From an uncultured delta proteobacterium (lineage in GTDB: Bacteria; Desulfobacterota; Syntrophia; Syntrophales; Smithellaceae): a stretch of DNA of 64,000 bases. How positions within the stretch are numbered: position 1 is the first letter of the stretch; each line of letters begins with the position of its first letter. The translations under genes were made by a program, and so were the position numbers. This document shows positions 36,020 to 50,147 of the stretch, piece after piece. The DNA is taken from contig CAVWEH010000005.1 of NCBI GenBank assembly GCA_963753975.1, positions 608,001 through 672,000 on the forward strand, read 5' to 3'. Under the pieces are notes generated by a model. The model was not told where the DNA came from, did no database searches, and saw nothing but the letters and a program-made list of their open reading frames with translations.

Positions 36020-37725
36020 ATGACAAAAAGAAAAAGAATTGTAGTGATCGGCGGCTCAGCTGCTGGCCCCAAGGCGGCGGCAAAAGCCAGAAGAATCGAC
36101 AACGATGCGGAAGTTGTCATTCTGCAAAAAGATGCGGATCTTTCCATGGCGTCCTGCGGTTATCCTTATTATGTCGGCGGATATTTCAATGACCGCAACA
36201 TGCTTTTGTGCACGCCCACGGGCGTTGTTCGAAATCCGATGTTTTATCTCAACGCCAAGGACATCGACGCACGAGTAAACACGGAAGTCACAGCCATCGA
36301 CCGGAAAAACCATTCCGTTTCGTTTCAAAAATATTGTGACCGGCGAAACCGGCACCATTGACTTATGACAAACTCGTCATCGCCACCGGTTCCGTCCCGC
36401 AAATGCCGCCGGTGCCCGGCGTGGAACTCGAAGGCATTACCACCCTGCAATCCATGAAAGACGCCGACTTTCTGCGCAAAGTCCGCGACGAAGGAAAAAT
36501 CAAAAAAGCCGTCGTCATCGGCGGCGGGCTGATCGGCATCGAAACCTGCGAAGCCCTGCAACTGGCGGGTATCGAAATCACGGTGATTGAACTTTTGCCT
36601 CAGCTGCTCACGTTTCTGGACTGGGAACTGGCCAAACTCGTGGAAAACCATGTCAGGAGCAAAGGCGCCAATGTCATCACGGACAACGGCATTGCCGAAT
36701 TCCTCGGTGAAAACGGCAAACTGACGGCGGTCAAACTGCAAAACGGCACGGAACTGCCCTGTGAACTGGCGGTTGTGGCCATCGGCGTCTATCCCAACGT
36801 CAAACTGGCCAAAGAAGCTGGTCTGAAAATCGGCGAATCTGGGCGGCATTGATGTCAATGAATATATGCAGACTTCCGATCCGGATATCTATGCCGTCGG
36901 CGACTGCGTGGAAACGGTCAACAGAATTACCGGTAAAAAAGTGCTCGCGCCCTACGGCGATCTGGCCAACCTTCAGGGACGTGTGGCGGGAGAAAACGCC
37001 GCTTCGAAAAACTGCGTGACATTTCCCGGAACGATTCAAACCGGCATCTGCAAGGTCTTCGATTATGCGGCAGGCTCCACCGGACTTTCCGAAACAGCGG
37101 CAAAAAGACTCGGATATTCAGATATCATCACGGTCATCAACGCCAGCCCCGACAAGCCGGGGTTTATGGAAGGAAAGCTTCTGGTCACCAAGCTCATTGC
37201 CGATACAGAAAACAGGCAGAGTGTTGGGCGCTCAGTGCATCGGTCCCGGCAATGTCAGCAAGCAAATCGCCCAGTGGGCAATGGCCATCCAGGGAAAACT
37301 GACCGTTGAAGATATCATCAATGCGGATCTGCCCTATGCGCCGCCTTTTTCTCTGGCTATCGATCACTTCATCGCCACGGCGCACATTATGCAGAATAAA
37401 ATGAAAGGCAGGCTGAAGGGCATTAGTTGCAAGGAAGTACAACGAGAAAGTGCTAAACAATGAAAAACCTTTCCTCATCGACACGAGAGGGCCGGAAGAA
37501 TTCGAGGAAATGCGCCTGGGCATCGGCGAGACGCTTATTCCCCTGGGCGCGCTGCGCAAGCGATTGAAGGAACTTCCCGAAGATAAGAACAAGGAAATCA
37601 TCTGCTACTGCAAGATTTCACTGCGCGGCTACGAAGCGGCGCTGGCGCTGGAAGGCAATGGATGGAAAAACGTCAAGGTCATGGAAGGCGGCATCATGGC
37701 CTGGCCGTATCCGAGGGAAAAATAG
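36020..37725 (+). CDS. CoA-disulfide/persulfide reductase-like flavoprotein with C-terminal rhodanese domain, five +1 frameshifts (probable sequencing errors)
   Basis: GGSAAG, SMASCG, ATG, GGGLIG, GDC, YAPPFS, rhodanese YCKISLRG spread over several frames. Shifts near 36324, 36358, 36842, 37207 and 37441; 1706-5 = 1701 nt in frame. Confidence 0.85.
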
Positions 37726-37967: not shown

Positions 37968-38017
37968 CGTCTTTTGATTAAACAGAAATTAAGCCTTTTT
38001 TAAAAGGAGGAAATAAT

Positions 38018-38911
38018 ATGAAAAAAAATATTTTCTCAAAAATCCCTCTGATTATTTTTCTCCTCTTGCTGCCTTGCGCGGGTGGGGCAAGAGAAATCGC
38101 GCCGATTGTCTCCGCCGACTGGCTTCTGACCAATCTCAAAAATCCAAAATTGATTATTCTCGATGTCCGCCGGGTGGAAGACTACCGCGAGGGACACATC
38201 CCGAAAGCGCTCAGTGCCTTTTACGGTGCATGGGCATATAAAAAAGATGGTCTTTTTGCAGAGATCCCTGATCTGGACGACCTCAATGACACCATCGGCT
38301 ACGCAGGCATCAGCCAGGATTCCTGGGTTGTGGTCACAGGCAAAGTGGACACACCCCGGTTGAGCTATCAAAGCGCCCGGGTGGCCTGTACGCTGCAATA
38401 CGCTGGTTTGGTGAATGTGGCGCTCCTCGACGGCGGCATGAACAAGTGGATCGCGGATAAAAAGCCTCTATCCACAGACATTGTCCGCACGAAAGAAACC
38501 CCCTTCCAGGGAAAATATCGAAAGGGGCACTTTGCCGATAAGGATTATATTAAGAGCCGACTGGGCAAGATCGTTCTGCTGGATGTCCGCGAACCCGAAT
38601 ATTTCACCGGCAAGAAGAAGATGGACTGTGTCCCCCAAAGGGGAAGAATTCCGGGTGCCTTTAATCTACCTACCTCCTGCGCCTTTAATAAAGACGGCAC
38701 GTTCAAGACTAAAGAGGGGTTGGCTGTGATTGCTGAGGCCGCTGCGAATAAAGATAGATCAAAGGAAATCGTCACCTACTGTGACATCGGTCAGTGCTGC
38801 CCGGTATGGTCATACCTGCTTGCCGAAGTATTGGGCTACACCAATGTCCGGCTTTATGTCGGTTCCATGCAGGAATGGATGCAGGACCCAAATGCGCCCG
38901 TTACGCGCTGA
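38018..38911 (+). CDS. exported tandem-domain rhodanese/sulfurtransferase
   Basis: Signal peptide, IVSADWL, GHIP, LLDGG, DVR, RIPGA, active loop YCDIGQC, YVGSMQEW. Confidence 0.9.
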   Translation: MKKNIFSKIPLIIFLLLLPCAGGAREIAPIVSADWLLTNLKNPKLIILDVRRVEDYREGHIPKALSAFYGAWAYKKDGLFAEIPDLDDLNDTIGYAGISQDSWVVVTGKVDTPRLSYQSARVACTLQYAGLVNVALLDGGMNKWIADKKPLSTDIVRTKETPFQGKYRKGHFADKDYIKSRLGKIVLLDVREPEYFTGKKKMDCVPQRGRIPGAFNLPTSCAFNKDGTFKTKEGLAVIAEAAANKDRSKEIVTYCDIGQCCPVWSYLLAEVLGYTNVRLYVGSMQEWMQDPNAPVTR

Positions 38912-39000
38912 ATTTATCAGGTACAATCTGAACCTAATATTCTTCCCATCTGGTGGGCAAGGTCTGGGGGAGTTTGGAAAACAAGCATGGTGTTCGATTA

Positions 39001-39158
39001 AATCACGGGTATGACCCCCAAAACAAGCTTTGGAAATCAATTTTGCAACAAGCTGCGGGGTATGATATTCTCTGCTTCGCGGGATTATTCAACTGACCAA
39101 TTCTGACGTGCGACTTTTAGGTTATGCGCTTCGCTTTCGGAATTAGAGTTTCACGAAT
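39001..39158 (+). repeat. structured dispersed repeat, copy 3
   Basis: AATCACGGGTAT...GCTTCGCGGGATTATTCAACTGACCAATTC...TTTAGGTTATGCGCTTCGCTTTCGGAATTAGAGTTTCAC. Confidence 0.65.
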
Positions 39159-39297
39159 AAATCCAAAAATAGCCGGCGGGCGGCGGTTAAGTGAACTGCT
39201 TGCCGCTTACAGATGCATTTTATGTAAGCTATTTTTTTGGACACGGAAGAGGTTTTTCTTATCATTTTGAAAATATTTTTTATTAGGAGGTAAGTCC

Positions 39298-40002
39298 ATG
39301 AACATCGGTGACTTGGACAAAACTTTTCATTTCATTATAAAGCGTATGGTGGAAACCGGGCGAGCTCCCCACTACACGGAAATAGCGAAAGAACTGGGCG
39401 TCTCCATGGAGGAGGGGCGGAAGATCATGCAAGAGCTTTTTACCAAGAGGGTGCCGGGATGGCTTGCTCCAAGTACGGATTTCATCGCTTCGTTCGCGCC
39501 ATTTAACAGTCAACCTACTCAGTTTCGCATCACTATCGAAGGCCGGCAGAAATGGTTTGGCCAATGAGCATTCGAATCGCTGGCGGTCTGCTGGCTTTTC
39601 CCGGGTAAAAAGGTAGAAATTGATACCCCTTGTCTTGATTGTGGGGAACCCATTCATGTGGAGATTCGAGATGGGATGATCTTGAAGGCCGAGCCAAAGG
39701 AGATAATCGGATATGTAGCTGTTCCATTTGCCAAGTGGGCTCAAGATACAAGCTATGCCTGAACGACCATGACTTTCTTCCGGTCGGAAGAACATCTTCG
39801 CAACTGGGCGCTCTTTAAGCCCGATACTGAGGAGGGGATTATTCCACTGCCTGACTTACTCAAACTCTTTTCCGGCAAAATGTTTCGCCGGAGAATGGAC
39901 CCCGACTATCTTTCCCGCATGCGGGAATATGGCCTGGATTTTTGGACAACTCTTCAAGAAATCGGCAAGGTCGGCCCTTTCTGGTCGCTGAAGAAATCAT
40001 AA
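39298..40002 (+). CDS. MerB (organomercurial lyase)-like selenoprotein, 234 aa, Sec90 and Sec155
   Basis: One frame from ATG 39298 (AGGAGG RBS) to TAA 40002, with TGA at 39565 (WFGQ-U-AFE) and 39760 (SYA-U-TTMTFFRSEEH). These match the MerB W-C-A-L-D and F-C-x-x-x-x-F-F motifs, and a SECIS-like hairpin follows each. Confidence 0.85.
39579..39595 (+). promoter_or_regulatory. SECIS-like hairpin for UGA 39565
   Basis: 11 nt after UGA: GCUGGC-GGUCU-GCUGGC (two G-U pairs); loop resembles E. coli fdhF SECIS. Confidence 0.7.
39775..39792 (+). promoter_or_regulatory. SECIS-like hairpin for UGA 39760
   Basis: 12 nt after UGA: UUCUUCC-GGUC-GGAAGAA, perfect 7-bp stem. Confidence 0.78.
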
Positions 40003-40074
40003 TCGCCTGCTCGTCCGCCGGTCGGCAATCCGGTCGGCGGATGCAGGGATTGAAAAAATAAATGGAGGTCTTTA

Positions 40075-41106
40075 ATGTATGCCTTGAAATTTAAAGAAAG
40101 AGTTTGCGCTACCTGTCCTTCGGCCGACTGTCTCCTGAAGTGCCAGTACATGTCCTTTAGCGGACATAAAGAAGCGCATAAGGAGATGATGAAGGTTGTT
40201 CGCGGTGAGGATTCCCGCATATTGCGCGAGTGTACGACTTGTTATGCCTGCGAGGAATATTGCAGAAGAAGAAATCATCCCTTTTATCTCATCAGTGAAC
40301 GCCGGGAAGAAAAAGGCATGTTCACCGCGCCCCGCCCCATCACCAATCAGTGGATTAATATGACCAAGATGCAGGGCAAATATATGGTCGGCCAGGTGAA
40401 GGACAAGGTGCTTTCCTGCTGCTACATTCCTGCTCTGGGGATGCTGGGGCAAGGGGAAATTTTCAAGGACGTCGCAACGGCTGCCGCTTTCGGCGCGGAA
40501 TTCATGTGTCCCGCCGTCCACACTCATTTTGCCCGCATGGCGGTTATCAAAGAGCGCCTTCCTGTCGTCATTGAAAATTTTAAGAAATTAGGCGCAAAAG
40601 AGGTTATCTGCCTGCATGATGAATGCTACGGCACCTTTACTTCCATTGCCTCCGCTTACGGAATTCACGTTCCGTTTAAGCCGGTTTATTACATGGATTT
40701 TTTATTGGAAAAAATGAAAGAACTCAAAGGCAGGATCAAGCCGCTTAATATTAAAGCCGCTTATCAACGTCCCTGCTCCAACAGGCTCATTCCGGATAAA
40801 CTGCCCCTGGTGAAAAAAATCCTGAATTTAATCGGGGTCAAACTGCCCAAGAGGATATATCAGGATGAGAATTGTCTTTGCTGCGGAGAAATTATCCGGT
40901 CTGTTTCCGGCTACAAACTGGCGGATGATGTGCAAAAAAGAAATATAGACGATATGCTCGAAAGCGGTGCCGAGTATTGCGTTTTCAACTGTCCGGCTTG
41001 TCAGTCATCGCTGTCGGAGAAGGTTATCAAGAAAGGGTTGAAGCCGATCCATATTATTGATCTGTGCAAGATGGCCATTGGTGAAAAGGAAAGGGAGGTG
41101 AAGTAA
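40075..41106 (+). CDS. Fe-S/CCG-domain oxidoreductase subunit (HdrD/GlcF-like)
   Basis: CATCPSADCLLKC, CTTCYACEEYC, HDEC, QRPC, CLCCG, NCPAC. Confidence 0.82.
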   Translation: MYALKFKERVCATCPSADCLLKCQYMSFSGHKEAHKEMMKVVRGEDSRILRECTTCYACEEYCRRRNHPFYLISERREEKGMFTAPRPITNQWINMTKMQGKYMVGQVKDKVLSCCYIPALGMLGQGEIFKDVATAAAFGAEFMCPAVHTHFARMAVIKERLPVVIENFKKLGAKEVICLHDECYGTFTSIASAYGIHVPFKPVYYMDFLLEKMKELKGRIKPLNIKAAYQRPCSNRLIPDKLPLVKKILNLIGVKLPKRIYQDENCLCCGEIIRSVSGYKLADDVQKRNIDDMLESGAEYCVFNCPACQSSLSEKVIKKGLKPIHIIDLCKMAIGEKEREVK

Positions 41107-41107
41107 G

Positions 41108-42487
41108 ATGAGCGACATCCTGAAATCGCTAATCGATATCGTTGGAGAAAAAGGTGTTTCCAATACGCCTGAAGAGCTTTGGTTCTACTCGCGTGACCCC
41201 GGAGTTTTGACACCACATCTCCCCGACTACGTAGTGGCGCCTAAAACAACGGAGGAAGTGCAGAAGATCGTTTTGCTTGCCAACAGGGAAAAAATTCCCA
41301 TTGTGCCCATGGGAAACGGCATGTCCCTGACTGGTCTGGTGATCCCGTTGAGGGGCGGCATCGTTCTGGACATGAAGCGGATGAACAAAATTCTGGAGGT
41401 AAATCAAATGGCCCGCTACGCCGTGGTGGAAGGGGGAACATCGCAGGGTGTTCTCAAAGCCTACCTGCAGGATCACCATCCTCAACTACGCCACAGCATA
41501 CCCGACGCGCCGCCGGCGACAACCATCGCCGCAAATGCCGCTCTCCACGGCCAGGGCCGCCTGACCCAGCAATATGGTTTCAACTCCGATATGGTCACGG
41601 GCATGGAGGTTGTCCTGCCCACGGGCGAAGTCTGTTTGATCGGCTCTCCCTCATTGGGCCCTTACTGGTTTTCGAAGGGGCCCACGCTGCCCGACCTTTC
41701 CGGCCTCTTTCTCGGCTGGCTGGGAACGACAGGCATCATCACCAAAATCGGCCTTCGCCTCTACCCGAATAAAAAGATTCGGGACGTAGAGTTATTCGTG
41801 ACCGATCGGGTGGACATGATCCCCGACATCCTTTATAAGCTTACTCACCTGGAAATCCTGGAAGACGTGAACGTCTGGTTTCAGCCCAAACCCCTTGTGT
41901 TTCAGGGCAATTTTCACATCACCATCTTCTTTACGGGAGATACAGATGAGGAGATCGTTTTTAAGCGGCATATGATCTGGGATGCCCTGCAGGAGTATAT
42001 GGATTCCAAAGACGGAGGTTTCATGGGCGTCCAGTACATGAAAAATATGCTATTGGAGATGCCGAGCCGGGGGGTCGCCGATTTTGCCGATGTTCCGAAA
42101 GGCGGCGGATTTGAGTATTCAGGACCGATAACCATCATCGAACACTTCCCTCGCTACGCGGCCAAGGTTGTTGAACTGGCGAAGAAATACGACGTCCTGT
42201 ATGCCAGCGCGGCCCGTCTCATCTCCGGCGGGCATTGTATGATGTTCAGCATCTCTTTTGCCTTCAATCGCAATGACCCGGCTATGATGGAGCGAGTGAA
42301 GCACGCCCTGGACGAGGCCATGGCCTTCGCCTTGGAAATGGGCGGCATTCCCTGGAAACCGAATTTTGTAGAGCAGAAAATGACTCTGGAGAAAATGGAC
42401 CCCACGGCCCGGAAGCTCCTTCATATGATCAAGAAGAACCTGGATCCTCAGGGCATCATGAATCCCGGCAATTGGGAGGTAAACTAA
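41108..42487 (+). CDS. FAD-binding oxidoreductase (GlcD/D-lactate dehydrogenase family)
   Basis: PDYVVAP...EEVQKIV, GNGMSL, GMEVVLPTG, GTTGIITK, IKKNLDPQGIMNPG. Confidence 0.88.
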   Translation: MSDILKSLIDIVGEKGVSNTPEELWFYSRDPGVLTPHLPDYVVAPKTTEEVQKIVLLANREKIPIVPMGNGMSLTGLVIPLRGGIVLDMKRMNKILEVNQMARYAVVEGGTSQGVLKAYLQDHHPQLRHSIPDAPPATTIAANAALHGQGRLTQQYGFNSDMVTGMEVVLPTGEVCLIGSPSLGPYWFSKGPTLPDLSGLFLGWLGTTGIITKIGLRLYPNKKIRDVELFVTDRVDMIPDILYKLTHLEILEDVNVWFQPKPLVFQGNFHITIFFTGDTDEEIVFKRHMIWDALQEYMDSKDGGFMGVQYMKNMLLEMPSRGVADFADVPKGGGFEYSGPITIIEHFPRYAAKVVELAKKYDVLYASAARLISGGHCMMFSISFAFNRNDPAMMERVKHALDEAMAFALEMGGIPWKPNFVEQKMTLEKMDPTARKLLHMIKKNLDPQGIMNPGNWEVN

Positions 42488-43665
42488 TGGCTGACGTACA
42501 TAATATAGAACATCAAGAGATCGTCCACCGGTGTTTCCGTTGCGGATATTGTAAATTCCCGAGCGACTATGTCGATTTCAACTGCCCGTCTTACAAGGCT
42601 TTCGGATGGGATACCTATTCTGCGGGCGGGAGGATGTGGCTCATCAGAGCCTGGCTGAGTGGCGAAATTAAAACGAGCCCCCATTTTGCCGAAATACTTT
42701 ACTCCTGCGTAGCATGCGATAATTGTAAGAATCAGTGCGTTTTCCCGAAATTCAAAGATTTTCTGCCGGAAATATTCCAGGAAACTAAAGTGGAACTGGT
42801 CAACGAAGGCAGGATTCCGCCGGAGGTTCGGGATTATTTCAAGGCCGTCGCCACCAACGGCAACCCTTACAAACTGCCGCAGTCGGAAAGAGGCAAATGG
42901 ACCGAAGGAACAGAATTAAAAAAATATTCGGGTCAGGAGTATCTCTTTTATGCGGGCTGCGTCGGTTCCTACGACGAAGTGGGACAAAAGATGGCCCGCA
43001 GCGTGGGGAGTCTGCTGGTTGGCGCCGGCGTGTCCCTGGGCATTCTGGGGAGTGAAGAAACCTGTGACGGCAACGAAGTCAAAATTCTCGGAGAGATGGG
43101 TCTTTTTACGCAACTGGCCAATGACAATATCAAGAAATTTAAGTCACAGGGCGTTAAGAATATTATCACCCTTGATCCCCATGCCCTGAACGTCTTCAAG
43201 AAAGATTATCCCAAACTGGGAGGGAGCTTTAAGGTACTTCACTATACGGAAATACTGGCTGGGTTAATCAAGGCAAAAAAAATTCCCCTTTCTAATTATT
43301 CGGCGAAAGTCACCTACCACGACCCCTGCTATTTAGGCAGGCATAATCAGATTTATGGTCCTCCGCGGGAGATACTGAAATCAATTCCCGGCCTCGAATT
43401 GGTCGAAATGCGTCGTAATTCTCTGAACGCGTTTTGCTGCGGAGGGGGAGGAGGAAACTTTTTTACGGACATTTTGGGTACAGGCGTTGACAGTGCGGGC
43501 CGTGTCCGTGTTCGGGAAGCTCTGGAGACAGGCGCCAATATTATCGCTGTAGCTTGTCCGAGCTGTGCCAAAATACTTATGGATGCTGTGAAGATGGAAA
43601 AGCTGGAAGACAAGCTGGAAGTTTTGGGCATCGCCGAAATCGTCGGGAGAGCCCGCAAAAAGTGA
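42487..43665 (+). CDS. Fe-S/CCG-domain oxidoreductase subunit (GlcF/HdrD-like)
   Basis: CFRCGYC, CVACDNCKNQC, YAGC, YHDPCYLGR, CCGGGGG, ACPSC; start overlaps upstream TAA. Confidence 0.88.
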   Translation: MADVHNIEHQEIVHRCFRCGYCKFPSDYVDFNCPSYKAFGWDTYSAGGRMWLIRAWLSGEIKTSPHFAEILYSCVACDNCKNQCVFPKFKDFLPEIFQETKVELVNEGRIPPEVRDYFKAVATNGNPYKLPQSERGKWTEGTELKKYSGQEYLFYAGCVGSYDEVGQKMARSVGSLLVGAGVSLGILGSEETCDGNEVKILGEMGLFTQLANDNIKKFKSQGVKNIITLDPHALNVFKKDYPKLGGSFKVLHYTEILAGLIKAKKIPLSNYSAKVTYHDPCYLGRHNQIYGPPREILKSIPGLELVEMRRNSLNAFCCGGGGGNFFTDILGTGVDSAGRVRVREALETGANIIAVACPSCAKILMDAVKMEKLEDKLEVLGIAEIVGRARKK

Positions 43666-43679
43666 AGAAAGGAAAGGGT

Positions 43680-44210
43680 ATGGATAAAGAAGATATACTC
43701 AAGGAAGTCTATGATAAAGCGAAGGGATACGAGCTCAAAGGAGGAAACTGCGCGCAGTGCAGTATTGCCGCTATTTTCGAAATAATGGGAGTGGAAGATG
43801 AAGGAGTATTCAGAGCCGCGACAGGTTTGGCCGATGGCGTGGGCTTAAGCGGAGATGGTCATTGCGGAGCACTTTCCGGAGGGACGATGGCCATCAGTTA
43901 CTTTTTCGGCAGAAGTCGAGAAGATATCGGCAGGATGGGCAAACAGATTAAGGCCTTGCTTCTGGCAAAAAAGCTTCATGATGAATTTGTGGAGAAATTT
44001 TCCACGTGCCGGTGTGCCGATATTCAGAAAAAACAGTTTGGCCGTTTCTTTAATCTCTATGATGTGGAAGAGATGAAGGCGGCCTTTAAGGCGGGCATGC
44101 CGGAAAAATGCTCGACGCTGGTAGGAGAGACGGCGCGAATAGCCCTGAAAATTATTCTCGATGAGCAGGAAGCAAGAAAGGCAAAGCAAGATGAACTTCC
44201 TGTTTTATAG
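43680..44210 (+). CDS. C_GCAxxG_C_C family putative redox-active protein
   Basis: NCAQC, HCGALSGG, CRCADI, KCS. Confidence 0.85.
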   Translation: MDKEDILKEVYDKAKGYELKGGNCAQCSIAAIFEIMGVEDEGVFRAATGLADGVGLSGDGHCGALSGGTMAISYFFGRSREDIGRMGKQIKALLLAKKLHDEFVEKFSTCRCADIQKKQFGRFFNLYDVEEMKAAFKAGMPEKCSTLVGETARIALKIILDEQEARKAKQDELPVL

Positions 44211-45395: not shown

Positions 45396-46658
45396 ATGGC
45401 AGGTTTCACCAAAGCTCTGATGATTCTCAATATCAAATCCGCGTATGAACGCGTTGCATCCGGCGGATGGGTTTATCTTACCTTCGTTTGCATCTTCGGT
45501 CTCCTGTTGCTCATCGGTATTGGGGCTGGAATCCACGCCTTGTTCATCGCCGGCACGCGCCATACTTACGGAACCTATCGCGAAGTTCCTGTGGCTCTCC
45601 TCATTTCCACGTATGTATATTTTGTCGTTGCCTCCACGGGACTTTGCCTCGTTTCGTCAATAGGGCATCTTTTCGGCTTTCGTCAATATGTGCCCATCGC
45701 CAAGCGCGCCATTTATCTGTCAATTATGACTATCTTGGCCGGTTTTCTGGTCATCGGACTGGAAATCGAGCATCCTTTCCGCATGGTCATATATAATATC
45801 CTCTCTCCTAACATGAGTTCCAATATTTGGTGGATGGGAACACTTTATAGTTTTGCCCTGGTTTTTCTGACTATCGAATTTATTTTTCTTTTGCAGGAAA
45901 TAAAAAATAAAAAAGCCATAGTTGTGTGTTTGCTGGGGGTAATTACCGAAGTAGCCGCCAACAGCAATCTGGGAGGCGTTTTTGCCATGATGCACGGCCG
46001 TGAATACTGGTACGGCTCCTATCTGCCCGTCTACTTTGTTGCGTCCGCCATGATGACGGGTTGTGCCTTTATTATATTTTTTTTCGTTCTGTCCTACTGG
46101 ATCAACAGGAAAACCATGGATCAGCCAACCGAAAAAGCGCTCACGTCTGTGGGAAAGCTCGCCATTCTTCTGCTCGTAATAATCATGCTTTTCACTTTCT
46201 GGAAAATGATGATTACATCTGTCGGCGGGTTGACGGAGATTGCAGCTATGAACGCGCTTATCAGCGGTCCTTATGCCTTCCGTTTCTGGGGGGTTGAAGT
46301 GTTCGGAGGGATGATTATCCCGCTTGTTTTATTGCTTATATCCAGGACAAAAAATATGATGATCATGTTTATAGCGTCGGTATTTATGATCTTCAGCATT
46401 TTTTTCATGCGCCTGGATATGGTTGTCGTAGGACTGATTGTGCCTCTATATCTCGATCTTGGCGTTGCTGAATATTCCAAGCTGTATGCGTATACGCCGA
46501 GCGTTCATGAAATTATGGTAGTTCTGGGCGGCGTCGGCTTTTGCGTTTTAGCATTCCTTTTGGGTGAGAAGATTTTTGATGGATTTAAGCATACGGAAAT
46601 CAACCATATGCCTGAGCCGATAGCGATCGATGTTAACAAAACGGAAGAAGTGCCATGA
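45396..46658 (+). CDS. NrfD/PsrC family quinol-interacting membrane subunit
   Basis: About 10 TM helices, STYVYFV, LEIEHPFR, SSNIWWMG, REYW. Confidence 0.87.
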   Translation: MAGFTKALMILNIKSAYERVASGGWVYLTFVCIFGLLLLIGIGAGIHALFIAGTRHTYGTYREVPVALLISTYVYFVVASTGLCLVSSIGHLFGFRQYVPIAKRAIYLSIMTILAGFLVIGLEIEHPFRMVIYNILSPNMSSNIWWMGTLYSFALVFLTIEFIFLLQEIKNKKAIVVCLLGVITEVAANSNLGGVFAMMHGREYWYGSYLPVYFVASAMMTGCAFIIFFFVLSYWINRKTMDQPTEKALTSVGKLAILLLVIIMLFTFWKMMITSVGGLTEIAAMNALISGPYAFRFWGVEVFGGMIIPLVLLLISRTKNMMIMFIASVFMIFSIFFMRLDMVVVGLIVPLYLDLGVAEYSKLYAYTPSVHEIMVVLGGVGFCVLAFLLGEKIFDGFKHTEINHMPEPIAIDVNKTEEVP

Positions 46659-47407
46659 AAAAAAATCGGTCCCAAGGCGGAGTGAAAGAAAAAGAGCTTC
46701 CGAAATATCCTCTTGATCAGGAACGCAGAAATTTTCTGAAGATGGGTCTTGTGATAACGGGCGTCGTAGCCTCCGGCTCTGTTTTATCTCTGATATCGAA
46801 CGTGGGGAAAGCGTATTCCTTCGATGCGTACCGAAAGAAGTATCCTTACAAGCCGCATTACAGCATGGTCATTAGGCAGGATCGCTGCATCGACTGCAAA
46901 CGATGCATGGAAGCCTGTGTGGCTACTAACCGTGTGCCCGACTATGGATGGAGGACGATGATTCTGGAAAAAAAAGTTCCCGAGTCCATGGATGAAAGAT
47001 GGGACTTTATACCGATACTATGCAACCAGTGCAATGATCCTCCCTGTGTGCGTACTTGTCCGACAATGGCAACTTATAAGGATAAAACCAACGGCATCGT
47101 CATGATGGATAATAAGAAATGTATCGGATGCAAGTCCTGCATGATGGCCTGTCCCTACGATATGCGCTATTATAACGAAGCCAAGAAAGCGATTGATAAA
47201 TGCGACTTCTGTTTTGAAGCGCGGCTTTCCAAAGGCATAAAGAACGTGGCCTGTTCGGAAGCCTGCCCCGCCGATGTCCGTGTATTCGGCGATCTGTCCG
47301 ATCCTGAAAGCAGAGTCTATGAACTTATCCACCAACTGCAAAAGCCGGTTTGGGTGTTGAGGGAAGAAGTAGGCGCCAAACCGAATATTTTTTACATGAA
47401 GGGCTAG
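46655..47407 (+). CDS. NrfC/PsrB-type 4x[4Fe-4S] protein with Tat signal
   Basis: RRNFLK, CIDCKRCMEAC, CNQCNDPPCVRTCP, CIGCKSCMMACPY, KCDFC...CSEACP. Confidence 0.9.
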   Translation: MKKNRSQGGVKEKELPKYPLDQERRNFLKMGLVITGVVASGSVLSLISNVGKAYSFDAYRKKYPYKPHYSMVIRQDRCIDCKRCMEACVATNRVPDYGWRTMILEKKVPESMDERWDFIPILCNQCNDPPCVRTCPTMATYKDKTNGIVMMDNKKCIGCKSCMMACPYDMRYYNEAKKAIDKCDFCFEARLSKGIKNVACSEACPADVRVFGDLSDPESRVYELIHQLQKPVWVLREEVGAKPNIFYMKG

Positions 47408-47418
47408 CTTAGGATAAG

Positions 47419-49239
47419 ATGAAAAAAAGTTATATTTTTCTATTTTTGTTGATATTTTTCTGCACAACGAATGTTTGCATGGCCAAGCAGGAGACTTTCT
47501 CCGACGGAGGGGGTATTCTCTATACGGAACCATTGAAGGCTGTTATTTTCCGGCATCAATACCATGTGGATGTTAAACATATTACCTGCGATAAATGCCA
47601 CAGCGGCCTCTTTGAGATGGAAGCCCTCAAAGTTCAGGGAGAAAATGATTTCACTATGAAGTCCCTGGATGAAGGAAAGTATTGCGGAGCATGTCATAAC
47701 GGGAAGGATGCTTTTGCCTCGAACACCGAGTGCACCAAATGCCACGTTCGTCTGGACGATTGGCAAGGACGAGTGGGGTATCTCAAGGGGAACCCTATGC
47801 CGTATAAAATCCCTGTTTACAATACTTCCATTTCCTTCGGGCAGGGTGAAATGAAAGTCCGCTTCAATCACGAAAAGCATTCATCGCCTTTGAGCTGCCG
47901 GGATTGCCATTCGCAGCTCTTTCGAATCAAAAAAGGTTCAAACAATATAACCCTTCTGAATCACAATCCGCAAAAATACTGTTTTGGCTGTCATGATGGG
48001 AAAGAGACCTTTTCCTGGTATAGCTGCAATAAATGCCACAAAAACTGGACGGAAATTGCCCAGGTCGGCCCCCTGAAAACAAAGGCCGACAAAGGCAGTT
48101 GCTACAAATGTCATACCAGCGCGAGCGAAATGAAAGCCCTGGTAAAACCGCCGTTAATACAGAGCGAGGGAGAGGGGTGAGCAGGACCACCTCCCCCGGT
48201 TCGGGCGGAAGATTATTACAAGGGTTATATGGTAAATCCGGCGTGGATGGGCAAGGATTTTCACCTGGGCATGGAATGCGTTTCCTGCCACAAGGGAGAT
48301 GACAAAAGCCAAACAAAGGAAGCAGCCCACGCGGGATTTGTGCGCCAGCCGTCCGATAATCTGGAAACCTGCGGCATATGTCATAAGAAGACAGCCGCAA
48401 ACTACGCCAAAGCTCTTCATTACACCAGTTTGGGACAGTATGAAGGCGTCAAGCACAGGTTTTCCGCAGAAGAACTGAAAACCTTTGACAGTAAGGTTTT
48501 TAATCAATCGTGCCGGACATGCCATGCATCCTGCGGTGATTGCCATGTCAAATCGCCGCCTGTTTCCGGCATTACCACCGGGCTCTTGCAAGGCCACAAA
48601 TTCGTAAAGAAAAACGAAGGCAAGACCTGCGCTTCCTGTCACGGCGGCCGCGTTTATCCGGAATTTACGGGAGAATACGGTGGCACACCCGATATCCATT
48701 ATCAGAAAGGCATGATTTGTGTGGATTGTCACAAAAAGACCGAAATGCACGGGGACGGCACAATGTATAAATCCAAGCAGGAAGTCAAGGAGCGCCCCCG
48801 CTGTCAGTCTTGCCACAAAGATAAAAAATTTCAGCTCGCCCACGAAATACACAAGGATACGGTTAGCTGTCAGGGCTGCCATTCGTCGGGTCCGTATCGC
48901 CAGTGCTACAGCTGTCATCTGGATACGGGATCTTCATCCAAACCGGGTTTTATTTTGGGTTTAAATCCGCATGACAAGAAGACGTTGACGACGCTGAGGC
49001 TTGTTCCAACTGTAAGGACTACATTTAATCAGGCCGGAATCAAAATGGAAAACTTCGATACCCTGCCGAACTACTGGAATTCGGCGGTGCATAACATCAC
49101 GAAACGGACGGAGCGGACACGATCCTGTGATTCCTGCCATGTGGCAAAAGAAGGATTCCTTAAGCGCGAATCGCTTATTAAGGATGGTTCAAAAGCGAAT
49201 GAGGAGTTAATTTACAACATTAAACCAAGCAGCAAGTAG
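47419..49239 (+). CDS. 17-heme cytochrome c selenoprotein, 606 aa, Sec254
   Basis: ORFs 47419-48180 (7 CxxCH) and 48229-49239 (10 CxxCH) share a frame, separated only by TGA 48178-48180 (SEGEG-U-AGPPPPV). A SECIS-like hairpin follows, and the second ORF has no signal peptide. Confidence 0.8.
48192..48209 (+). promoter_or_regulatory. SECIS-like hairpin for UGA 48178
   Basis: 11 nt after UGA: UCCCCC-GGUUC-GGG(C)GGA. Confidence 0.65.
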
Positions 49240-49253
49240 ATTAGGAGGGTTTT

Positions 49254-50147
49254 ATGAGAAAAACAAGATGGTTAAAAGCAGTACTGATTTTCACTTTGTT
49301 ACTTTTGCCGCTCGCGGCGATGGCCAGAAGCATCGATCCCATTGTTTCCACGGACTGGCTGCAAAAGAATCTGAAAAACGCAAAAATAGTCATCGTGGAT
49401 GTGCGCAAGGTGGAAGACTACAAGGCGGGCCACATTCCGGGTGCGGTCAACGTATTTTACGGCTCCTGGGCAATTAAAAAAGGCGACTTGCTCAACGAAC
49501 TGCCGCCGATTGACGACCTGGCCGATGTCATCGGAGGAGCGGGAATAGACAAAAATTCTCTGGTCGTAATTGTCGGGAAAACGGAAAAAGTTCCCGATCA
49601 GTTTGATATGACCCGCGTTACCTGGACATTGAAATATGTCGGCGTTCCCAATGTAGCCATTCTCAACGGCGGGGAGGATCAGTGGGCAAAAGAAAATAAA
49701 CCCCTATCCGAGGATATGGTAAAGGCTAAGGCAAAACCATTCAAGGCTTCTGTCAATAAAAATCTGTACGTGGATAAAGCTTTTGTGCTGGCCAAAGTCG
49801 GCAAAGTAATTATTGTGGATGCCCGTGGCCCCGCTTTCTTTGAAGGGAAAGAAAAGCTCCCTTTCGTGCCCAAAGTAGGACGAATCAAAGGAGCAGTTAA
49901 CCTCCCCGTGGGACAATTGTATACGCCGGAAGGTTTGTATAAAGCCAAGGCGGAGCTTGCTGCACTGGCCGAAAAAGCGGTGGGCAAGGATATGAAAAAA
50001 GAAATCATCGTCTATTGCGATACCGGAAAGACGTGTACTTCGTGGGCCTTTATTATGACCGATATGCTCGGTTACAAAGATGTGGGAGTCTACGACGGAT
50101 CATTTATGGAATGGGCGGCTGATCCGAGCGCACCAATCGAACCATAA
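49254..50147 (+). CDS. exported tandem-domain rhodanese/sulfurtransferase
   Basis: Signal peptide ending AMA, IVSTDWL, GHIPGA, ILNGG, active loop YCDTGKT, YDGSFMEW; paralog of 38018-38911. Confidence 0.9.
   Translation: MRKTRWLKAVLIFTLLLLPLAAMARSIDPIVSTDWLQKNLKNAKIVIVDVRKVEDYKAGHIPGAVNVFYGSWAIKKGDLLNELPPIDDLADVIGGAGIDKNSLVVIVGKTEKVPDQFDMTRVTWTLKYVGVPNVAILNGGEDQWAKENKPLSEDMVKAKAKPFKASVNKNLYVDKAFVLAKVGKVIIVDARGPAFFEGKEKLPFVPKVGRIKGAVNLPVGQLYTPEGLYKAKAELAALAEKAVGKDMKKEIIVYCDTGKTCTSWAFIMTDMLGYKDVGVYDGSFMEWAADPSAPIEP

Follow-up and report, generated by a model that had tools for sequence, protein, structure and literature searches.

A MerB-family gene with two conserved in-frame UGA codons, predicted to place selenocysteine at both metal-ligand positions, in an uncultured Smithellaceae bacterium

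In this study, we analysed a gene interrupted by two in-frame stop codons in DNA of an uncultured delta proteobacterium of the family Smithellaceae, within a stretch of 64,000 nucleotides (contig CAVWEH010000005.1 of assembly GCA_963753975.1, positions 608,001 to 672,000; hereafter the window, from whose first letter all positions are counted). The locus at 39298-40002 on the plus strand is one real, intact gene for a MerB-family protein with two selenocysteine (Sec) residues, and this protein belongs to a clade distinct from SaoL, a MerB-like selenoprotein, and from canonical MerB. Judged from the sequence, Sec is almost certainly inserted at both UGA codons. The best overall explanation of the locus is a gene for a di-Sec lyase of the MerB type, which we regard as somewhat probable.

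Conservation of the reading frame and of both UGA codons

Read directly, the frame comprises 234 codons, is terminated by TAA and contains as its sole internal stops TGA at codon 90 (39565-39567) and at codon 155 (39760-39762), referred to below as site 1 and site 2. Open reading frame (ORF) calling with translation table 11 yields two pieces, 39298-39567 (89 aa) and 39769-40002 (77 aa). A first-pass annotation made from the letters of the window had proposed such a single frame, split by gene callers, and is borne out here, as is its statement that the motifs U90-A-F-E93, U155-x4-FF and C112-x-x-C115 (U, Sec) are present in the read-through translation. The features of the locus are the following, SECIS standing for selenocysteine insertion sequence.

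39238-39265, plus strand: weak candidate for a sigma-70-like promoter (TGGACA, 16 nt, TATCAT; 10/12 matches)
39285-39290, plus strand: ribosome-binding site AGGAGG, 7 nt upstream of the ATG, read directly
39298-40002, plus strand: coding sequence of the di-selenocysteine MerB-like protein, 234 aa (Pfam, AlphaFold model, Foldseek)
39298-39495, plus strand: N-terminal winged-helix-like domain, about residues 1-66 (secondary structure of the model, weak Foldseek matches)
39565-39567, plus strand: UGA codon 90, predicted Sec, aligned to MerB Cys96 (Cys, TGC/TGT, in the sister clade)
39574-39576, plus strand: GAA codon of Glu93, aligned to the MerB proton donor Asp99 (profile alignment)
39574-39600, plus strand: SECIS-like hairpin 1, 3 + 6 bp, loop GGUCU (pairing conserved and tied to the site-1 UGA)
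39631-39642, plus strand: invariant motif C112-L-D-C115 (both Cys in 120/121 aligned rows)
39760-39762, plus strand: UGA codon 155, predicted Sec, aligned to MerB Cys159 (TGA conserved in relatives)
39775-39792, plus strand: SECIS-like hairpin 2, 7 bp, loop GGUC (pairing conserved, with compensatory changes)

The two TGA codons are more than a product of chance, because they are conserved in the same alignment columns in other genomes. Among 401 genomes of the same phylum, searched with a threshold of E up to 1e-10, 49 contained a match, and 43 matches in 38 genomes (the carriers) had exactly two in-frame TGAs. Both TGAs fell in the same columns in 29 of the 30 loci that were fetched; the exception is the decayed-looking copy L045, which contains one TGA and a TAA and encodes Val at site 2. 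In contigs representing one genome per species, at least 520 stretches encode a relative, and the best 80 of them have TGA at both sites in 77 cases, TGC and TGA in two, and TGA and GTA in one. Both codons are kept in relatives down to about 54% protein identity. The locus with GTA at site 2 (L060) has Gln at the Glu93 position and looks decaying. Five genomes of the phylum sample (G327, G388, G384, G169 and G297) have two copies of the di-TGA gene on different contigs. By taxonomic label, the one-genome-per-species contigs with a relative come mostly from Thermodesulfobacteriota (Syntrophales, Syntrophobacterales and Desulfobacterales), and single records bear the labels Acidobacteriota, Poribacteria, Dehalococcoidia, Nitrospinaceae and others.

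A search of protein databases returned 177 matches, 120 of which were listed and aligned. Among these 120, 72 stop exactly at residue 154, 69 of them with Cys at site 1; two (P0039 and P0089) span the full length and have Cys at site 1 as well as site 2; and 46 full-length entries have Trp at both sites. The first-pass annotation had named Trp in homologues as evidence that would speak against it, and at the protein level these 46 entries do show Trp at both positions. At the DNA level, however, TGA stands at both sites in the 29/30 and 77/80 loci described above, none of the exceptions is TGG, and TGG was found at neither site in any fetched locus, be it the 30 phylum loci, the best 80 genome loci or the metagenome loci of a sister clade described below. 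For this reason the Trp residues are most likely TGA codons that gene callers working on short contigs read under table 4, an assignment made from the DNA of relatives, since the DNA of the 46 proteins themselves was not among the fetched loci. A true Trp at both sites of these proteins (P0002-P0047 and P0094) was rejected, as TGG is absent from the fetched loci of relatives. As to the related question of whether homologues carry Cys or TGA at the two sites, TGA dominates, and homologues with Cys at both sites exist.

Sequencing data of relatives were also inspected. The best indexed run contained 0.28 of the sampled words, the strain itself being absent from the index. In contigs of relatives from four runs (at least 82% likeness), no listed difference falls on either TGA, 148 rows standing outside those listed. 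In the RNA library X17, one contig of a relative (record 17, 39529-39602) spans site 1 and another (record 18, 39591-39978) spans site 2; this is a weak hint of transcription at most, since such libraries can hold DNA.

Hairpins and selenocysteine decoding

In bacteria, the SECIS element is a stem-loop located directly downstream of the UGA, with a G in its apical loop, and this arrangement is found at both UGAs of the gene. Hairpin 1 has an upper stem (39579-39584/39590-39595) that closes the loop GGUCU and begins 11 nt after the UGA, and a lower stem (39574-39576/39598-39600); hairpin 2 is formed by a single stem (39775-39781/39786-39792) with the loop GGUC, which begins 12 nt after the UGA. 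The spacing and loops agree with the first-pass annotation, which had noted a GGUC-loop hairpin 11-12 nt after each TGA. Taken singly, the sequences lend these structures no support: the folding energies of the two 56-nt stretches do not differ significantly from those of shuffled sequences (z +1.03 and -0.38), and Rfam models, searched against 38000-42000 with a threshold of E 10, gave five chance-level matches with no SECIS family among them. Since energy and Rfam give nothing, the case for the hairpins rests on the comparison with relatives.

In 29 sequences, 99.6% of the cells of hairpin 1 are paired, compared with 27-65% when the partners are slid, although all its changes are one-sided. 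For hairpin 2 the figure is 98% of cells, and two of its pairs change on both sides (8 cells), which 0 of 500 shuffles reached. As coding constraint could mimic part of this pairing signal, a clade with Cys at site 1 was used as a natural control, represented by 120 metagenome loci (L130-L249) collected with a pattern requiring Cys at that site. This Cys/Sec set has TGA at site 2 in 110 of the 110 loci in which the site is visible, and it pairs hairpin 2 in 98.5% of cells, as against 97.1% in the set with UGA at both sites (U/U). Compensatory swaps in the Cys/Sec set affect three pairs of hairpin 2: CG is replaced by GC in 8 sequences, by UA in 16 and by AU in 8, in some cases with a change of amino acid. 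The upper stem of hairpin 1, on the other hand, is intact in 94 of 98 distinct U/U sequences and in 26 of 91 distinct Cys/Sec sequences; in the latter its loop is scrambled, and its Leu codon is CTG in 39/91, compared with 89/98 in U/U. Thus each hairpin is tied to its own UGA, as the clade with Cys at site 1 keeps hairpin 2 and is mostly without hairpin 1.

A point that weakens this contrast is that a FastTree phylogeny of 167 rows has 3 changes of the site-1 state, with the U/U and Cys/Sec sets forming largely separate clades; to judge by this tree, the hairpin 1 contrast is partly one between two lineages. Hairpin 2, kept in both lineages, provides an internal check on such a lineage effect. 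From these comparisons, both hairpins are predicted recoding signals, each for its own UGA.

The host genome (2.43 Mb, six contigs, 95% complete) encodes the means to read UGA as Sec. Here again the first-pass annotation, which had asked for selA, selB, selC and selD, is answered in the affirmative: tRNA-Sec (73 bits; anticodon TCA, ARAGORN), SelB (364 bits), SelA (597 bits) and SelD (383 bits) are all above their cut-offs. ARAGORN found no tRNA in the window. The SelD gene has an in-frame TGA of its own and is thus itself a selenoprotein gene; the coordinates listed for SelA and SelD are G000:C5:598520-599893 and G000:C5:32823-33752, the SelA gene lying on the same contig about 8 kb before the start of the window. 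TGA is not a general sense codon here, because it terminates 13 of the 41 long ORFs of the window. SelA was found in 35 of the 38 carrier genomes, and the other three have SelB above its cut-off, so that all 38 have SelA or SelB; these three carriers, for which even a threshold of E 1e-3 gave no SelA, are drafts in 40, 390 and 590 contigs. As a test, the co-occurrence with SelA was discarded for want of discriminating power, SelA being present in 371 of the 401 genomes.

Fold, active site and possible function

The read-through protein scores 83.7 bits against the Pfam MerB family (PF03243; cut-off 27), and the match runs unbroken from residue 70 to residue 190, with both TGAs inside it. The protein is the product of the only PF03243 gene in the genome. 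When a profile built from 78 family members was searched against structure databases, the best solved structure was MerB2 (5c17; E 2.2e-10, 43.9 bits), and MerB (1s6l/3f0p) was matched with E 1.6e-3. An AlphaFold model built on the family alignment has a predicted local distance difference test score (pLDDT) of 94.9 and a predicted template modelling score (pTM) of 0.90. With this model, MerB or MerB2 entries of the PDB take all of the first 11 places in Foldseek, at E values as low as 1.1e-10 and template modelling (TM) scores by target of 0.54-0.70, and the matches that follow have E > 0.3 (the next 0.32) and cover the N-terminal winged-helix-like part only. The MerB-like family and fold claimed by the first-pass annotation are therefore agreed upon by Pfam, the PDB profile matches, the AlphaFold model and Foldseek. 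It had further claimed an N-terminal winged helix, and the model has a winged-helix-like domain made of helices 3-20, 26-33 and 37-49 followed by strands 54-56 and 63-66, with weak Foldseek matches (E > 0.3) to the DNA-binding domains of LexA, DtxR and MntR.

In the printed profile alignments (5c17, 3f2g), codon 90 corresponds to MerB Cys96, codon 155 to Cys159 and Glu93 to Asp99 (Ser in MerB2), as had been proposed; C112 corresponds to MerB Cys117, and C115 is without a MerB counterpart. The passages on MerB in PMC10114901 describe Cys96, Cys159 and Asp99 as essential, with both thiolates binding mercury and Asp99 acting as the proton donor that releases the hydrocarbon, and Cys117 as buried and structural. 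Of 121 aligned rows, with the query counted, 113 have Glu at position 93 and 6 have Asp. The additional CxxC noted in the first-pass annotation is present and invariant in family alignment A4, with both Cys in 120 of the 121 rows. E93, F92 and W99 are likewise invariant in A4, which fits a catalytic rather than a mere binding site.

We propose that ribosomal read-through of the two UGAs would give a 234-residue cytosolic selenoprotein of the MerB fold, each UGA being recoded via its own downstream stem-loop, recognized by SelB with tRNA-Sec. The selenolates of U90 and U155 would replace the mercury-binding thiolates of Cys96 and Cys159, and Glu93 the proton donor Asp99. In an organometal(loid) substrate, methylmercury being the obvious choice, the soft metal or metalloid would be bound by both selenolates; its bond to carbon would be weakened in this way, whereupon Glu93 would protonate the leaving carbon. 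The C112-x-x-C115 pair, or cellular thiols or sulfide, could afterwards strip off the tightly bound metal, and the selenolates could supply the affinity needed to outcompete sulfide and thiols in anoxic habitats. Because the active-site geometry of MerB and an invariant carboxylate are kept, protonolysis fits better than plain binding or thiol-type redox chemistry, and we hold that lyase chemistry, the protonolysis of a carbon-metal(loid) bond, has an even chance of being what the predicted protein performs. The substrate and the part played by the CxxC motif, which may aid in the release of the metal, are inferred, as is the function as bond-cleaving or redox enzyme that the first-pass annotation had put forward. 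It is rather unlikely, though worth stating, that the protein is a mer-independent organomercurial lyase of anaerobes, whose two selenolates take methylmercury from sulfide and thiols with no help from MerA, in sulfate reducers and syntrophs of which many are also mercury methylators.

Several observations weigh against a lyase. A mercury complex with two selenolates would be very stable, which makes product release a chemical problem. The protein is not an orthologue of MerB or SaoL, as the change of Asp to Glu and the scores below the cut-offs of their models show, and both Sec in the protein and its enzymatic activity are predictions from sequence and model. None of the window neighbours is a mer gene, and the best MerA match in the genome reaches 362.8 bits, below the cut-off of 454.45. 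No conserved partner gene was found across 81 loci, the commonest neighbour occurring in 11 of them, and for this reason nothing outside the protein points to its substrate. The genome is that of a predicted mercury methylator, because HgcA is above its cut-off (470.8 bits against 275; G000:C5:164910-165896, outside the window), and HgcA is present in 19 of 38 carriers compared with 100 of 363 non-carriers (odds ratio 2.63, Fisher p 0.008, ignoring relatedness and genome size). However, half of the carriers are without HgcA, and this co-occurrence, being weak and uncorrected, was not used as support for a role in mercury metabolism.

That the locus encodes no selenoprotein at all, being a gene broken by two nonsense mutations, two small genes or a frame in which TGA is read as another residue, is highly improbable and close to refuted. 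Such a reading could draw on the two ORFs obtained with table 11, the 46 database homologues with Trp at both sites, the hairpins' lack of significance by single-sequence energy and of an Rfam match, and the frameshifted gene nearby at 36020-37725. However, nonsense mutations would not show the column conservation of both TGAs to about 54% identity, no fetched locus has TGG while homologues have Cys at the sites, each hairpin goes with its own TGA, and TGA is an ordinary stop in the window of a genome whose Sec machinery is complete.

If the protein is accepted as a selenoprotein, it could instead be a redox enzyme in which U90 and U155 cycle between diselenol and diselenide, or form a selenenyl-sulfide with C112/C115, so that the MerB scaffold would be reused to reduce or isomerize a sulfur or selenium substrate. 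This we consider unlikely. We know of no redox member of the MerB fold, and an invariant carboxylate at the proton-donor position is what protonolysis requires. The invariant extra CxxC does resemble a resolving pair, but C112 aligns to MerB Cys117, described as buried and structural in the passage of PMC10114901 quoted above. Section 7 of PMC13188914 states that most selenoproteins are redox proteins, most of those catalogued in prokaryotes being redox proteins or having CxxU/UxxC-type motifs, which also tells against a lyase. The window neighbours, moreover, include rhodaneses, Hdr/GlcF-like CCG proteins, a C-GCAxxG-C-C protein and an NrfD/DsrO-like module, although such a neighbourhood is not conserved in relatives. 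Somewhat less probable still is a non-catalytic protein that binds soft metals or metalloids (such as Hg, As or Se) with very high affinity, acting as a scavenger, as a chaperone that passes the metal on or, by way of its winged-helix domain, as a metal-sensing regulator. Two selenolates at a proven metal site would suit such a role, as would a solitary gene that has a promoter-like site to itself and shares no operon, the weak enrichment among hgcA carriers, and the weak Foldseek matches of the N-terminal domain to metal-dependent repressors. Those matches, however, have E > 0.3, MerB shares the N-terminal domain, and MerB is not known to bind DNA; the would-be recognition helix (residues 37-49, MEEGRKIMQELFT) is acidic, and an invariant Glu93 is unnecessary for binding alone. 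The di-Sec MerB-type lyase thus remains the explanation that we prefer.

On one side of the gene stands a two-domain rhodanese, and on the other a set of CCG, FAD-oxidase and Fe-S genes. Across the 81 loci the commonest non-self neighbours are a HisKA_3 histidine kinase (11 loci), an acyl-CoA dehydrogenase (8 loci) and a B12-binding radical SAM protein (5 loci); the neighbourhood was rejected as a clue to function, as none of these is conserved. The promoter scan found one site, compared with a shuffle mean of 1.6, and is thus not above chance, and the terminator scan called nothing at the locus. By eye, an inverted repeat (GCTTACA-N11-TGTAAGC) is visible at 39205-39229 (+), immediately 5' of the promoter-like site. 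A second inverted repeat, rich in GC, with the loop CAAT and without a T run, follows directly after the stop codon at 40015-40040 (+); it was not called as a terminator.

At 36020-37725 (+), a gene resembling CoA-disulfide reductase (Pyr_redox_2 and a dimerization domain), fused to a C-terminal rhodanese, can be read only with at least four frame hops; its catalytic motif, SMASCGYPYY, has Cys and not TGA. This looks like local decay rather than a general assembly error, the surrounding long genes being intact. The stretches 38018-38911 and 45396-50147 (+) encode two two-domain rhodaneses, an NrfD/DsrP-like membrane protein, a DsrO/TtrB-like Fe-S protein and two c7-type multihaem cytochromes, with weak, sub-cut-off similarity to ExtH, ExtM, ExtN and ExtO of the selenite/tellurite reduction (Ext) operon; to judge by these likenesses, they may form a respiratory module for sulfur or selenium. 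The C-GCAxxG-C-C protein at 43554-44210 (+) scores 55.2 bits with TIGR01909 (cut-off 47.4), a family that includes selenoproteins; this copy is without an in-frame TGA in the ORF as called.

Comparison with known systems

A full-text literature search, which did not extend to supplements, found no published description of a di-Sec MerB family, SaoL being the sole MerB-family selenoprotein there. SaoL, with its CU motif and one Sec, is also the sole MerB-family entry among the 119 families or subfamilies, split by Sec position, of a 2026 inventory (PMC13188914, Table 1), and the Cys/Sec sister clade was likewise not found in that catalogue. No model of NCBIfam release 20 claims the di-Sec protein. 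The di-Sec MerB design is widespread in anaerobic sediment bacteria, split by gene callers and absent from selenoprotein catalogues. Standard annotation fragments the gene, with the result that databases hold short 'hypothetical' pieces or proteins with Trp at the active site, table 4 gene calling most likely placing the wrong residue there without notice. Few bacterial proteins with more than one Sec are listed, and this one would join them with two, which would both be ligands of a single metal site and are each served by a separate recoding hairpin within the reading frame, while the sister clade with Cys at site 1 offers a natural experiment on what a SECIS costs the coding sequence. If the lyase reading is true, the gene is a concrete candidate for the anaerobic degradation of methylmercury or other organometal(loid)s, and as a mer-independent lyase it would help to set net methylmercury levels in anoxic sediments and soils. 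The pathways of anaerobic demethylation remain uncharacterized according to the relevant passage of PMC10114901.

Two Sec residues thought to bind one metal are listed in Table 1 of PMC13188914 for NF041115 (metal-binding, UxxU) and NF045648 (MbdU). These are other families, and neither model matched the di-Sec protein at E up to 1.

The closest published selenoprotein is SaoL, the MerB-like 'selenocysteine-assisted organometallic lyase' (NF040728; Haft & Gwadz, bioRxiv 10.1101/2022.07.06.499078), which the first-pass annotation had rightly named as already reported, the di-Sec gene itself not being SaoL. In the parts of that preprint devoted to it, SaoL is a MerB-fold protein of anaerobes with Sec at the ligand equivalent to Cys159, its database entries are truncated at the UGA, no more than an inferred function is assigned to it, and it serves as the marker of the SAO locus, a conserved set of nine genes (SaoB, P, C, E, T, X and others). 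It has one Sec, in a Cys-Sec dipeptide, and retains Cys and Asp at the positions of Cys96 and Asp99 (10.1101/2022.07.06.499078), whereas the protein described here has two Sec residues, Ala before the second (Y-A-U), Glu for Asp and an extra CxxC. A profile search of the translation with TGA as U, proposed in the first-pass annotation, placed it in the MerB family and did not reach the SaoL cut-off: NF040728 gave 51.7 bits against a cut-off of 140 and covered residues 13-136 only. SAO-family models had no match among 15 neighbouring proteins at E up to 1e-5. An identity with SaoL was rejected on the score, the missing CU dipeptide and the absence of SAO neighbours.

With MerB of plasmid R831b (EC 4.99.1.2; 1s6l, 3f0o, 3f0p, 3f2f) the di-Sec protein shares its fold (Foldseek E 1.1e-10; TM 0.58 by query and 0.67 by target), the three active-site positions and the N-terminal helical domain. 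It differs in having about 17-21% identity, Sec for both Cys ligands, Glu for Asp99, and neither a mer operon nor MerA. The NCBIfam MerB models NF009710 and NF033555 score 40.2 and 34.0 bits (cut-offs 193 and 200), and an identity with canonical MerB was rejected on these scores, on Glu93 in place of Asp and on the lack of a mer context. MerB2 of Bacillus megaterium (5c17), which among solved structures is nearest in sequence, deviates naturally from MerB at the Asp99 position, with Ser there and a much reduced activity according to the passage on it in PMC10114901. It has Cys rather than Sec and sits in a mer context, and the di-Sec gene does neither.

The nearest relative in design is the Cys/Sec sister clade, with its database entries of about 155 aa that end at 154 (L130-L249 among the metagenome loci). 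It differs from the di-Sec protein in having Cys (TGC/TGT) at site 1, in mostly lacking hairpin 1 and in forming a largely separate clade, but it shares Glu93, the CxxC motif, the TGA at site 2 and hairpin 2.

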